Position numbers and translations under genes: made by a program. Shown in pieces: positions 1,349-54,277 of a stretch of 54,277 nt of DNA. Origin of the DNA: Nanobdellota archaeon (GTDB lineage Archaea; Nanobdellota; Nanobdellia; Woesearchaeales; CAZZGN01); NCBI GenBank assembly GCA_051819665.1, contig JBNJDG010000005.1:1-54277 (forward strand). Reading direction: 5' to 3'. Under the pieces are notes generated by a model, which saw only the letters and a list, made by a program, of their open reading frames with translations, did no database searches and was not told the DNA's origin. Numbering within the stretch: the stretch's first letter is position 1; the number at the start of each line of letters is the position of its first letter.

Positions 1349-4300
1349 CTATACTCTCCTCTTCCTTCTCGCCTATTATCTTTGCAGCACCGACAACATT
1401 GTCATCCTCTTTCATCTTCATAAGCCTTACTCCCTGCGTATTCCTGCCTATCACTGAAACATCATGGACATTCGTCCTGATGACAATGCCTTTCCTGGTG
1501 ATAAGGAGGATCTCATCAAGCTCGGAGACAGCTTTCACCGAAGTGACCTCGCCGTTCCTGTCATTAGATTTTATATTGATTACACCCTTGCCACCACGGT
1601 TTATTAGCCTGTAATCCTCTACAGGCGTCCTCTTACCGTAACCATTAGCAGTTATAGTAAGAATGCTTCCTTCAGCCTTCACAGCACCGACGACATGATC
1701 ATCACCATTAAGACTAATACCCCTGACACCGTGAGCGGTCCTTCCCATATCACGGACATCGGTCTCCCTGAACCTTGCTGCAAGACCCTGCTTAGTAGCG
1801 AGAATTATCTCATCATTACCGCTGGTCTCGAGGACATTCATCAGCCTTTCATCCTCAGCTGTGTTTATGGCTCTTATTCCTCCTCTTCTCGGCCTGCTGA
1901 ACTGTTCCATGCTCGTCCTCTTGACATAGCCTTTATCTGTGGCCATGAAAAGATAATGATCCTTCTTGAATTCCTTGACAGGTATGTAAGCGGTTATGTT
2001 CTCATCAGATTCCTTGCCTATCAGGTTGACTATAGCCTTGCCCCTTGACTGCCTTGCCGCCTCAGGAATGTTATAGACCTTGAGCCAATAGACCTTGCCC
2101 TTATCCGTGAAGAACATCAGATAGCTGTGTGTATTAGCGACGAATATGCTCTCGACGAAATCACCTTCTTTGGTCGTGGCCCCGACAACGCCTTTGCCGC
2201 CTCTTCTCTGCTGCCTGTAAGTATCGATGGCAAGCCTCTTTATATAACCATGATTGGATATCGTAACAACAACATCCTCTTCCTCTATCAGCTCTTCTAT
2301 ATCAGTATCTCCGTCTTCCTCATATACGATATCGGTCTTTCTCTTATCTCCATACTTCTCTTTTATTGAAACTAACTCACCTTTTATTATCTCAAGCACT
2401 TTGCTTTCTGATTCCAGGATGGATCTGAGTTCTGCGATTGTCTCTTTAAGGCTCTTCTGTTCATCCCTCAATTTCTCCCTCTCAAGAGAGGATAGTTTCT
2501 GGAGCTTCATATCGAGGATGGCCTTAGCCTGCTTCTCAGATAGTGAATAATCCTCCATCAGCATGGAAGAGGCGGAAGCTGTATCCTCTGAAGCCTTGAT
2601 CTTCCCAACAACTTCATCTATATCATCCAGAGCGGTTATAAGACCTTCAAGGATATGAGCTCTGGCTTTAGCCTTATCGAGCTCGAATTCGGTCCTTCTC
2701 GTTATTACCTCCTTACGATGCTTAACGAACTGAGATATTATATCCTTCAGACTGAGAGTCCTGGGCTCATTATCAACAAGAGCCAACATGTTAAGACCGT
2801 AAGAGACCTCGAGCCTGCTGTACCTGAAGAGCTGATTGATGAGTACTTCGCTCTGGGCATCCTTCTTGAGCTCTATCACTATCCTCATGCCTTCCCTGTC
2901 AGACTCATCACGAAGATCCCTTATGCCATTGATCTTCTTGTCCTTGACAAGATTAGCTATCTGTTCTATCAATGCCGCCTTATTCACCTGATAGGGTATC
3001 TCGTCTATAATGATCCTTTCCTTGCCCTTGACCTCCTCGACATGGTACTTGGACCTGATCTTTATTTTTCCTCTTCCTGTCTTATAGGCTTTCTCAAGGC
3101 CTTTATCAGTAGAGATAATTCCCCTCGTAGGGAAATCGGGTCCCTTGATATAACCCATCATATCATCGACTGTTATATCCGGATCATCTATATACGCATT
3201 TATGCCGTCACAAAGCTCAGTAAGATTATGGGGAGGGATATTAGTGGCCATCCCGACAGCTATACCTGCAGTTCCGTTAGCAAGAACATTAGGGAGCTTC
3301 GAGGGCAGTACATCCGGCTCTTTCAGGCTACCGTCGAAATTCTCGGAATAATCGACCGTATCCTTATCTATATCAGCAAGCATCTCCTCAGAAAGCTTGT
3401 TCATCCTTGCCTCAGTGTTATGATTCAGAAAACCATTAGCAACGAACGAATGACAATCACTCTCTACCTTAACAGAATATACCTTCTCAGGTTTATCATC
3501 ACTCACAGAGACCACTTTGTTGAAGAAATACTTCCTCTCAAGAAGCATCTTCACAATCTTCATGTCAGCCGGTTTAAGTATCTTTGAAAGTTTAGAAAGA
3601 TTCTTCTCAAGCAGATTATACCTGTCCAGATTATTTTTCTGGATAAAGTTATGACTATACTCCGACCTGAGATAATCAGATATATAAGGAATATAATCCG
3701 TCTTGCTCATCCTTAATGAGTTAAGCTTATCAGCCTCATCTAAGACCGAGTTTTTCTTTTCAGAAAAAAAGCCGATTTCCTTAAACTTACTTATGCTATA
3801 TGCACCTGATATGATAAGCTTATAGCATTTCTTCCTGTCATGATAAGGTTTTGTAGTGACAACACCGAAATTAAGAAGCAGGGTCTTAAGCTGTCTTACG
3901 AGTTTCAGGCTTTTAGTGTTATAGGTGAGCTCTATCGATTTTCCACCATGTCTTTTATCAGTATTAAGCTTAACAGAACCATCACCTTCAAAAAGCCCCC
4001 TGAGGAAAGCCAGGACTACACCCTTCTTTGACCTCAGCACAGAAAAAGGTATCTCTTTCTTATCCGACCTTGAATTCTTGAACCCAATGTTTGAAAGGAA
4101 CCTGACGATCTGCTGATGGTAAAGATCAAATTCCTTGCATCCACCACTGATATCTCTCTCATAAAATTCCAAACCTTTAAAGGTCTTCTTCAGAGAGCTC
4201 TTGACAGCCTCATAATAAACATGGTCTGAGTTATTAAACATTATCTTATTCTGATGAAAGCTGCCCTCAGCTACAAGAGCACCTAAAGCAAAGGCAAGAT

Positions 4301-18564: not shown

Positions 18565-18589
18565 GAAAGCCTCCGGCGGGAGTTGCACC
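18565..18589. repeat. Exact 25-bp duplicate of the tRNA-Thr 3' end
   Basis: GAAAGCCTCCGGCGGGAGTTGCACC at 18565-18589 and 18659-18683. Confidence 0.95.
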
Positions 18590-18661
18590 TACACGCAAAC
18601 TTTTTACAAAACTTTGACCAAAACAATGCCATAAAGGCATGATTCTTCAAGAAATCAAGAA

Positions 18662-18734
18662 AGCCTCCGGCGGGAGTTGCACCCGCGACCTCGAGATTAC
18701 AAGTCTCGCGCAATAGCTACTATGCTACGGAGGC
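18662..18734 (-). tRNA. tRNA-Thr(UGU)
   Basis: Acceptor GCCUCCG/CGGAGGC, anticodon arm CGAGA-CUUGUAA-UCUCG, U73, no encoded CCA. Confidence 0.93.
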
Positions 18735-52482: not shown

Positions 52483-53557
52483 TATAATAAGCAAGATAAG
52501 GAACATAGCACAAAGTATCCACGAGAGCATCCTCAAGAACCAGGCCCCCAGAGTTGAAAGTCCATTAAGGAGCCTTAATAATGTAGAGTATGACCAGAAA
52601 CACGGCTATTTCAGGATAAGCGGAAAGGTTAAAGAAAGGACCCTTACTGCTTCGACCATCAAGACTTTCGCCCAGACCCTCAGGATGATGGGGCTCAGCA
52701 AAGGACTTATAGAGAGCGATGACATCGCAACTAAAAGGGAAGCATATTATGTATCAAAGAATTGGGGAGATGCAAGATTCAAAGAGCAGCCTGAATCAGA
52801 TACAGTCATGGATGATGTCGAAGCCACCCTTCTCGTAAACAGGGAACAGATGGGTTTCATCCCCGAAGAGAAGGGGGGTGACGTAGCCGGCGAGCTTGTT
52901 GTCGTGGATAAAGACTCTGAAACAGGAAAAGATGTCAGGATAGACTGTACAAAGATGGGCTCGGGTGCATACTCAGTACCGAGCAAGGTTGAAGAATTGA
53001 AATTCGAGACCAACGCAAAATTCATCCTGGCTATCGAGACTGCAGGTATGTTCCAGAGACTTGTCAAGCACAAGTTCTGGAGAAAGGAGAACTGCATATT
53101 GATATCTCTCGGAGGCGTTCCGACAAGAGCATGCAGGAGATTCATAAGAAGGTTGAGTGACAGCAGGAACCTGCCAGTCTATGTATTCACTGACGGGGAT
53201 CCATACGGTTTCGCGAACATATACAGGACACTTAAAGTAGGATCAGGTAATGCCGCCCATATCAATGAATTCTTCTGCGTCCCCAGCGCAAAATTCTTTG
53301 GTATCACCCCGAAAGATATAATCGATTATAAGCTGCCCTCACATCCTCTGAAAGAGATGGATGTCAAAAGGCTTAAGGACGCCATAAAGAATGATCCTTT
53401 CATAAAAGACCATAAGGAATGGGTTGATGCCCTGAATCTCCTGCTGAAGATGAGGAAGAGGGCTGAACAGCAGGCTCTTGCCGCGTGGGGTCTCAATTAT
53501 GTAATGGAGACTTACCTTCCGGACAAGATAAGGAACCCGAAAACCTGGCTTCCGTGA
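52475..53557 (+). CDS. top6A: DNA topoisomerase VI subunit A
   Basis: KREAYY, AIET, GVP, DGDPYG, AEQQA. Confidence 0.95.
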
Positions 53558-53796
53558 CTTTCTTTATTCCATTATTCTTAGGGTTAAATATTTACACTAA
53601 CTAGTTTAATTAATTAAACCATGAAAAACATAAAAGAATTATCGGGTAACAAAAAACTATCTGCGATCCTAAACTTATTCTGAAAAGAAAGCCAGGTTCT
53701 TGCTTAACTCCGCATCAGATTTTCTGAAGACCATTAATAATATCATCTCCAAACGAAATCTTTAAAAAAGAAACACCTATCCTCCCTTCTATTATT

Positions 53797-53871
53797 GGAC
53801 CTATAGCATAGTCTGGATAATGCGACGGCCTTCTAAGCCGTAGATCGGGGGTTCGAATCCCCCTAGGTCCG
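53797..53871 (+). tRNA. tRNA-Arg(UCU)
   Basis: GGACCUA/UAGGUCC acceptor, ACGGC-CUUCUAA-GCCGU, GGGGG-UUCGAAU-CCCCC, G73. Confidence 0.96.
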
Positions 53872-54217
53872 TTAGTTTTTGTGGGCTTGAGCTCTAGCGA
53901 AACCCACATTGCGTATCAAATTCGAGTAACAATTTGTTCTGGATCCCCCTAGGTCCGCTTTATTTTTGCGATAGTTTTTTTAGTTAGATCTGGCTTTAGT
54001 CAGATGTTACACGGGTTGATAAGGGTGAAACCCTTATGTGGGGATTCCCCTAGGTCCGTTCCTCTCAAGTTTTTTAGAAAAACTTGACTAAAACAGTGGG
54101 AACTTTGTTCTTCTTTGAGTGGGCTTGAGCTCTAGCGAAACCCACATTGCGTATCAAATTCGAGTAACAATTTGTTCTGGATCCCACCAGGTCCGTTAGT
54201 TTTTGTGGGCTTGAGCT
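53857..54217 (+). repeat. Array of tRNA-Arg 3'-end copies with partly duplicated spacers
   Basis: ATYCCMYYAGGTCCG-type copies at 53857, 53943, 54044 and 54181; 67-bp exact duplicate 53881-53947/54119-54185. Confidence 0.92.
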
Positions 54218-54277
54218 TCATTCTTATGCAACAGACAATTAGTTTTAAATATTAATACCTCAAAAATTAAACCGATG

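Follow-up and report, generated by a model that had tools for sequence, protein, structure and literature searches.

The window analysed here, a 54,277-nucleotide (nt) stretch of DNA that is the entire contig JBNJDG010000005.1 (C5) of a Nanobdellota archaeon, ends in an array of repeated tRNA 3' ends behind a gene for tRNA-Arg(TCT). The locus is probably an intact tRNA-Arg(TCT) gene followed by stacked miniature, gene-less and non-autonomous insertion modules, which would have rebuilt the end of the gene, stranded the old end downstream and later been reshuffled by recombination. An earlier reading of the letters of the window (the sequence-only reading) had proposed the serial integration of tiny non-coding elements, and this is the interpretation that we favour, with the spacers of the array now assigned to two widespread structured families (A and B) that lie at tRNA ends with local repeats. 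Genome comparison shows both families to be conserved in sequence and predicted secondary structure across an order of DPANN archaea, and to be flanked by direct repeats of the local gene end.

An array of tRNA-end repeats and structured modules

The tRNA-Arg(TCT) gene lies on the forward strand at 53797..53871 (53796-53872 by ARAGORN; 53797-53871 by Rfam RF00005, at 72.6 bits), is intact and has no intron. Its last 15 nt (53857..53871, forward strand; the last two bases of the T-loop, the 3' strands of the T-stem and acceptor stem, and the discriminator) form the 15-mer ATCCCCCTAGGTCCG, which recurs on the same strand exactly at 53943..53957, with one mismatch (ATTCCCC...) at 54044..54058 and with two mismatches, as the variant ATCCCACCAGGTCCG, at 54181..54195. 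The four copies are spaced by 86, 101 and 137 nt; 0.08 copies would be expected by chance, and four were reached in none of 100 shuffles, so that the repeats reported by the sequence-only reading stand as described. Identity to the tRNA drops outward, with 15, 14 and 13 of 15 positions retained in copies 2, 3 and 4.

The three spacers are of three different kinds, and none of them contains a gene. The first, cassette 1 (53872..53942, forward strand), is of type A and is matched by our family A model, R2, over 53879-53937 (72 bits). It has a T-rich start (53872-53880), a GTGGG...CCCAC hairpin with tandem G.A mismatches (53881-53907) and a second hairpin, CAAATT/AATTTG (53917-53936). Together with repeat copy 2, the end of this cassette forms a further hairpin (53940-53957) with a T-run after it, and the same succession of module end plus repeat, giving a hairpin and then a T-run, is present for each A module. 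Cassette 2 (53958..54043, forward strand) is of type B, with a match to the family B model, R1, over 53971-54052 (75.4 bits), and consists of a T-rich leader, hairpin 1 (53988-54005), hairpin 2 (54019-54037; ATAAGGG-TGAAA-CCCTTAT) and a conserved end, GTGGGGA.

The third spacer (54059-54180) is a composite, in which an AT-rich hairpin piece precedes a second A copy. Its first half (54059..54118, strand unassigned; inverted repeat I8) comprises the AT-rich hairpin at 54065-54087 and ACTAAAACAGTGGGAACTTTGTTC, and has related copies at the ends of contigs C8 and C33 and at the start of C47. Read on the minus strand, this half appears to resemble A variants whose second hairpin is CAAGnTTTT...AAAAnCTTG, variants that do exist in relatives (loci L178-L180). 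The second A-type module (54117..54175, forward strand; R2 match of 72.7 bits) has a body identical to that of cassette 1, and 53881-53957 and 54119-54195 are 97.4% identical over 77 nt. Beyond the variant repeat, only the first 22 nt of a third A module are present (54196..54217, forward strand; TTAGTTTTT followed by GTGGGCTTGAGCT); counted with the repeat, this start (54181-54217) matches 53857-53893 at 95% over 37 nt and then gives way to unique sequence. The recurring cassette and its third start, as well as every hairpin named in the sequence-only reading, are thus present in the array.

The window's contig belongs to an assembly of 64 contigs and 1.12 Mb, with an estimated completeness of 96% and a contamination of 4.45%. 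The array stands at the contig end, and the final 99 nt of C5 (54179..54277, forward strand) are identical to C8:1-99, an assembly overlap through which the locus runs on into the 41-kb contig C8. Contigs from the Logan collection match the array over 53844-53924 and 53895-53949 with 0 differences and over 54077-54188 with 2 differences. These come from RNA libraries (three runs of one study, two of which cover the array) and may hold DNA; they lack cover at 53559-53816 and at about 53950-54051, gaps to which no weight attaches. A unique 41-mer directly upstream of tRNA-Arg(TCT) had no match in the metagenome scan.

The variant repeat (CCCACC), together with an A module, is also present, inverted, at the far end of C8. 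At both ends of C8 (L104 start, L100 end) an A module plus variant repeat is joined in inverted orientation, and one contig of the RNA runs connects the AT-hairpin, A, the variant repeat and the AT-hairpin again. The 41-kb C8 segment, possibly placed between two facing tRNA-Arg arrays, may be able to invert. A joint from 54188 back to 54052 (a step back of 137) shows A, the variant repeat and the AT-hairpin in the order that they also have where C8 ends, on its far side, and was not taken as a circle junction. The sequence-only reading had suggested that the last variant is the end of a different Arg isoacceptor. Among 11 genome_contigs loci that carry the 20-mer TTCRAATCCCACCAGGTCCG of the variant end, eight have it as the 3' end of a tRNA-Arg (CCT, TCT or TCG), one is called as tRNA-Gln with an intron and two have no call, which makes the suggestion plausible, but no tRNA-Arg gene ending in ...CCCACCAGGTCCG is present in this assembly. 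Given these eight loci and the inverted variant repeat with A at the end of C8, exchange with a second tRNA-Arg array, its gene unassembled, is a plausible source of the fourth repeat.

The pattern across the host genome

The array is one of many in this genome. Eleven of the 40 tRNA predictions (intron-aware ARAGORN) have a copy of their own 3' end downstream, namely Ser-CGA and Ser-GGA (both on two contigs), Met, Trp, Thr-TGT, Arg-TCT, Pro-CGG, Ser-TGA and Lys-CTT; tRNA-Glu(TTC), whose 3'-end copy has a one-base deletion, is a twelfth, so that the genome-wide search proposed in the sequence-only reading finds cassettes at 12 of 40 predicted tRNA genes. Several spacer families (A, B, the AT-hairpin module, D and E) recur at different tRNAs, and the arrays of Lys, Met, Glu, Pro, Ser-GGA and Ser-TGA contain entire units in tandem. 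Many of the host's contigs terminate inside cassette arrays; assemblies of these genomes break at tRNA genes because the arrays are there.

Within the window itself, a 94-nt cassette with two hairpins (18568-18661, minus strand) lies behind tRNA-Thr(TGT) (18662-18734). One of its hairpins is like the AT-hairpin of cassette 3, and the cassette closes with 22 nt that repeat the 3' end of tRNA-Thr from a point within the T-stem onward (GGTGCAACTCCCGCCGGAGGCT).

A 14.5-kb segment that was assembled twice (C1:141-14644 and C10:81-14585 in G000; L089, L090, L093, L094), at 99.986% identity, is bounded by two outward-facing tRNA-Ser genes, and the two versions differ in cassette content at both ends: B versus B plus D behind Ser(CGA), and B plus A versus B plus B behind Ser(GGA). 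This is strain-level variation within the bin, and cassette content varies in the population. Of the filled and empty pair behind Ser(CGA), the filled member has a tRNA-proximal repeat with two positions in the trailer that do not match the empty site.

Two conserved structured families

Family B was modelled from seven copies (R1, a covariance model). Among 151 genomes sampled across the order, 28 gave matches to R1; the host has 16 copies, and each of the other matching genomes has one to three. In the host, B modules adjoin Ser, Glu, Met, Lys, Pro and Arg tRNAs; the bodies at Ser(CGA) and Ser(GGA) are identical, and each repeat matches its own tRNA. The same arrangement is found in relatives, where 22 of 26 B contexts have a tRNA 40-170 nt before the module and, after it, a copy of the end of the same tRNA, one lies behind 16S rRNA with a copy of the 16S end, and three are unclear or false. 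B is always oriented in the sense direction, behind a tRNA or, once, behind 16S rRNA. A 33-nt pattern for hairpin 2 had 20 exact matches in 19 metagenome contigs, all of them in such cassettes; the local tRNA-end repeat was detected in 15 of the 19, the others being cut by contig ends (two) or having diverged copies (two). The left border of the B repeat is fixed at G57 of the T-loop (ggttc/GAATC in the tRNA, atgtgg/GAATC at the cassette, the slash marking the border), its right border lies 0-11 nt into the T-rich trailer, and its length (non-tandem) is 13-28 nt.

The B module behind 16S rRNA (L119:1501-1580, in G148) lies 62 nt behind the 16S 3' end, in the 16S-tRNA-23S spacer, and is followed by the 16S-end copy GGATCAC(A)TCCTTT.

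Family A was modelled from four copies (R2), and R2 matched 38 of the 151 genomes, counting the unpublished G132 (37 of 150 without it), with 10 copies in the host. Its settings are more varied. We classified 45 A contexts by eye: nine are in sense orientation at tRNA 3' ends (the two of the window among them); ten are antisense at tRNA 5' ends with repeats of the first 14-42 nt of the gene, and five more are adjacent with weak repeats; five are inside tRNA genes; three are at non-tRNA sites with 24-26-nt repeats; and 13 are without a clear repeat (12 with none, and L207 with a weak one). C58:263-354 in the host genome is an A module at a 5' end, adjoining tRNA-Ile. The A bodies at tRNA-Ser(GGA) and tRNA-Trp are identical at 63 of 66 positions and carry different repeats, one of 31 nt from Ser and one of 18 nt from Trp; over the family, repeat length is 15-36 nt.

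In the host genome (L103:441-498; G000 C17, about 4040-4200), two A-like modules stand upstream of a ribosomal-protein-like gene between copies of a 24-nt direct repeat (GGCGA.AAAAATTCAGCGATAGAT). This repeat does not correspond to the end of a tRNA, and no Rfam family matched at the locus.

Pairing in both families is better conserved than in any shuffled control. Over 53 distinct B sequences, 95.1% of cells are paired and 13 of 14 pairs show compensatory changes; over 51 distinct A sequences, 97.0% of cells are paired and all 17 pairs are compensatory; none of 500 shuffles was as high in either case. On this compensatory pairing, the predicted structure of the modules is under selection. The B stems contain 41 G.U or U.G pairs against one A.C, which indicates that the strand that folds is the one that reads like the tRNA, and a 30-nt B core is near-invariant in contigs from many samples. 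The strand bias of A is weak, at 19 G.U to 10 A.C. One hairpin design (a stem, tandem G.A/A.G, two pairs and a GNA triloop) is common to A and to hairpin 1 of many B copies, as in CGAACGAAGTGAG and TTGAGCGTAGCGAAA.

Family A inside tRNA genes

The five A modules inside tRNA genes (L174, L184, L173, L179, L215) are all antisense. In L174 (G023) and L184 (G137), excision of 91-93 nt right after the T-loop GGTTC yields calls of tRNA-Gln and tRNA-Asn, and the position of the insert is that of the B repeat border (ggttc/GAATC). As removal restores a tRNA call, these two behave as archaeal tRNA introns do, and we regard them as putative introns. In L173, L179 and L215 the module lies in the anticodon-loop region within introns called by ARAGORN, their intron status being taken from those calls alone, with brute-force intron removal giving ambiguous results and spurious solutions. 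The cassettes of the window are not tRNA introns, being located behind an intact gene.

In G017, a relative with a closed 1.30-Mb genome, tRNA-Arg(TCT) (about 932300-933100; L069) has an anticodon-loop intron and an 18-nt T-loop intron, G.A-hairpin and hairpin-2 modules fill the spacer up to tRNA-Cys, and behind tRNA-Cys in turn stand a B-like cassette and a repeat of the end of this tRNA; ARAGORN calls only 7 tRNAs in this complete genome, or 15 when introns are permitted. In other genera of the order, four of 16 tRNA-Arg(TCT) genes (L008, L011, L014 and L016, among loci L004-L020) have a copy of their own 3' end within 700 nt downstream.

Searches for enzymes, viral copies and RNA families

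We searched the host genome for enzymes that might mobilise such modules. It contains no match to Cas1 (PF01867), although control genomes were positive, and none to Y1 transposase, the TnpB zinc ribbon, reverse transcriptase, resolvase or IS110 transposase, with positive controls in each search. The only clear Xer-like tyrosine recombinase, of 271 amino acids, is on contig C32. An integrase-like match at C8:4536-4730 was set aside (19.6 bits, below the cut-off, in a lysine-rich open reading frame of 256 amino acids), so that inspection beyond the window, as the sequence-only reading had advised, places no integrase beside the array.

The comparison with viruses, suggested in the same place, gave no convincing copy. 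The B hairpin-2 pattern had no matches in the viral contigs, and six viral-contig matches to the A hairpin pattern were judged to be chance, since all of them fall in GC-rich, coding-like sequence and neither the second hairpin nor a tRNA accompanies them. Rfam matched only the tRNA over 53500-54277, with other matches far below their gathering scores, and gave no match at the other arrays. We also considered, but do not propose, that the G.A hairpin is a kink-turn or C/D box, that hairpin 2 is a minihelix (for RNase Z), that the modules are guide-RNA-like (a scaffold with a 17-nt 3' copy beside a TTC) and that the cassette borders form a bulge-helix-bulge.

Origin of the array

Our interpretation rests on the combination of conserved bodies with local repeats. 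The modules appear to move between unrelated tRNAs as their repeats stay local, and the occurrence of A at tRNA 3' ends in sense, at 5' ends in antisense, inside tRNA genes and at non-tRNA sites indicates a process at the level of DNA and not an RNA role alone. The window's array comprises, in order, an A-type module, a B-type module, a composite of the AT-hairpin piece and a second A, and 22 nt from the start of a third A; at the close of each stand a T-rich tail and, before it, a repeat of the 15 nt with which the tRNA ends. We propose that modules would have entered by insertion or recombination of DNA in the segment between the T-loop and the 3' end, an event that would either duplicate its target or bring a replacement end, leaving the tRNA intact and the old end displaced downstream. 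Repeated events would stack the modules, the newest probably nearest the gene, which fits the fall in repeat identity with distance. The 15-35-nt direct repeats and the repeated bodies would then recombine unequally, so that units are duplicated in tandem, lost, or exchanged with a different tRNA-Arg array; this would account for the second A copy, for its foreign repeat variant and for the truncation of the third A.

Whether the repeat is made at the target or carried in by the module is a question on which the evidence divides: local repeats around near-identical bodies favour target duplication, the two trailer differences at the filled Ser(CGA) site favour a carried repeat (and so count against a pure target duplication), and variable repeat length favours neither.

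Several further observations weigh against stacked insertion as we propose it. The repeats of one family can be as short as 15 nt or as long as about 36 nt, a variation at odds both with a fixed staggered cut and with a single attachment site. No mobilising enzyme of the families searched was found in a genome estimated to be 96% complete, no full-length parent element was seen beside any module context that we read, and no convincing module copy was found in viral contigs. The cassette differences within the population could come from slippage between direct repeats alone, and do not prove ongoing insertion. The constant sense orientation of B to tRNA and rRNA, with its 41 G.U pairs against one A.C, is what an RNA role predicts. 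Finally, cassettes 1 and 3 do not differ in their A bodies, even though the outer copy is expected to be the older.

Of the alternatives, a target-duplicating transposition fares best, and we consider it unlikely. In this case a casposase-like or other enzyme would cut the two strands at staggered positions, one at the T-loop and one immediately beyond the 3' end, and a small linear module would be joined; gap filling would then copy the tRNA end, much as the uptake of a spacer copies a CRISPR repeat. Repeats that always match the local tRNA around bodies that are 95-100% identical, together with the fixed left boundary in family B, are what such an enzyme would produce, but the genome has no Cas1, neither A nor B shows clear terminal inverted repeats by eye, repeat length varies within a family, and the proximal repeat at the filled Ser(CGA) site is unlike the empty site.

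Somewhat less probable is that the cassettes are functional RNA modules, parts of the primary tRNA or rRNA transcript (for trailer processing, termination signals or small RNAs) that are selected and spread by duplication and gene conversion, the 3'-end copy being part of the RNA. This would suit the orientation of B (always sense behind a tRNA, or behind 16S rRNA in the rRNA spacer), its excess of G.U pairs, the near-invariance of its 30-nt core, the hairpin and T-run formed by the end of cassette A with the repeat, and the RNA-library contigs over 53844-53949 and 54077-54188. Cover by the first of these is a weak hint of transcription running from the tRNA into cassette 1. Family A fits poorly, with many of its copies antisense at tRNA 5' ends or within tRNA genes and with a weak strand bias (19 G.U to 10 A.C). 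Copy number runs from 0 to 16 per genome and varies within a population, Rfam has no match, and an RNA function by itself leaves the origin of the local tRNA-end repeats unexplained. The processed small RNAs that the sequence-only reading envisaged have a weak hint in their favour, in the RNA-library contigs that cover cassette 1 and the last A copy, but the antisense A modules at tRNA 5' ends argue against a general co-transcribed role.

Lower again we place ordinary attachment-site scars, in which viruses, plasmids or islands would have integrated serially by means of a T-loop tyrosine integrase and each would have shrunk to about 70-120 nt between attL and attR. The repeats do run from the T-loop to beyond the 3' end, which is also the extent of classical tRNA attachment sites, as Williams reportedly described in 2002; a tyrosine recombinase gene is present in the genome; and the proximal repeat behind the filled Ser(CGA) has its two differences, as if borne by an element. 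Independent deletions, however, would not yield the same structured modules of 60-90 nt in 28 and 38 of 151 genomes, with compensatory changes in their stems; there is no larger element or integrase beside any of the B contexts that we read (26 in relatives and 20 in metagenome contigs); and near-identical A bodies bear the repeats of unrelated tRNAs.

An assembly artefact or a purely local tandem duplication, both of which the sequence-only reading had named as grounds for abandoning its view, is very improbable: the array does stand at a contig end, such repeats do break assembly at many contig ends, and whole units are tandemly duplicated at several arrays, but the three spacers belong to different families, further tRNAs and further genomes have such cassettes too, parts of the array are reproduced by contigs from other runs, and the same architecture is found in the closed 1.30-Mb relative and many other assemblies. 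Misassembly of the array is accordingly unlikely, given the agreement of the RNA-library contigs and of those assemblies.

Relation to known systems

Elements that integrate at tRNA genes, and derivatives of them that lack an integrase, are among the nearest comparisons; they include tyrosine-integrase islands, the archaeal SSV- and pNOB8-type elements, products of tandem accretion and cis-mobilisable elements. The modules described here are like them in inserting at a tRNA gene, in regenerating that gene, in marking the far border with a displaced 3' end from the T-loop, and in stacking. Direct repeats that overlap the 3' part of a tRNA, by which attL and attR are recognised, are present at 53857, 53943, 54044 and 54181. 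The modules differ from such elements in that the inserts are of 60-120 nt, gene-less and drawn from conserved structured families, in that they occur also at tRNA 5' ends, at the 16S rRNA end and inside tRNA genes, and in that no integrase adjoins them and near-identical modules carry the repeats of unrelated tRNAs; instead of one element family for each attachment sequence, A is found at both Ser(GGA) and Trp, and B at six tRNA types.

Casposons are multi-kilobase elements that encode Cas1 and a polymerase and have terminal inverted repeats. The modules are unlike them, with no Cas1 in the genome, no clear inverted termini (none is obvious by eye in the A and B alignments, apart from a weak 5-nt TCCCA/TGGGA in some B copies) and, in place of a target duplication of fixed length, repeats of 15-36 nt for A and 13-28 nt for B. 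They also differ from miniature inverted-repeat transposable elements, in having no parent element or transposase of the tested families and in having long, variable repeats.

In integron cassette arrays the cassettes run in one direction, only the 3' end of the cassette is conserved, and a folded attC hairpin lies beside the junction. As an analogy only, our arrays are similar in being one-directional, with a conserved 3' end and a strand-specific folded hairpin by the junction, but there is no IntI or attI, the cassettes are gene-less, and what recurs between them is a copied tRNA end, where integrons have a 7-nt core.

Models of tRNA disruption form the remaining comparison. A mobile element integrating at a tRNA gene has been proposed as the cause of intron gain and of scattered fragments (PMC3293823). 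The A modules that are T-loop and anticodon-loop inserts in relatives resemble what such intron transposition or disruption models describe; most modules differ in that they are not within the gene and have duplicated gene ends on their flanks. Unlike the modules here, the Caldiarchaeum element is of 1.8 kb and encodes a recombinase.

The modules are thus a variant form of tRNA-targeted insertion and not a member of any named family, since they have no integrase, no Cas1 and no fixed duplication, and most are not inside a gene. Full-text searches of a collection of open-access papers gave no description of such modules, which is not proof that none exists.

Implications for interrupted tRNA genes

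Beyond stacked insertion itself, a broader possibility may be offered tentatively: the modules could be an undescribed class of tiny structured mobile elements of DPANN archaea that home to the loops and ends of stable-RNA genes (T-loop 56/57, the D-loop, the anticodon loop and the 16S 3' end). In one orientation a module would rebuild the gene end and stack; in the other it would interrupt the gene and survive only as a spliceable intron. Insertion might perhaps proceed through strand-specific folded hairpins that are recombined by a host enzyme such as the Xer-like recombinase.

The route by which archaeal tRNA introns arrive, in the words of a 2026 preprint, 'remains open' (10.64898/2026.10.13.758758). 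The A family, a hairpin family of about 60 nt, has three settings: it forms stacks behind tRNA genes, with duplicated gene ends; it precedes such genes in antisense orientation; and it interrupts them, at the T-loop and the anticodon loop. The B border (ggttc/GAATC) coincides with the T-loop intron site in relatives; together these provide a concrete candidate for the intron insertion step. The modules may in this way show how tRNA genes become interrupted, and, if they are indeed mobile elements homing to such genes, they would be a direct source of non-canonical tRNA introns.

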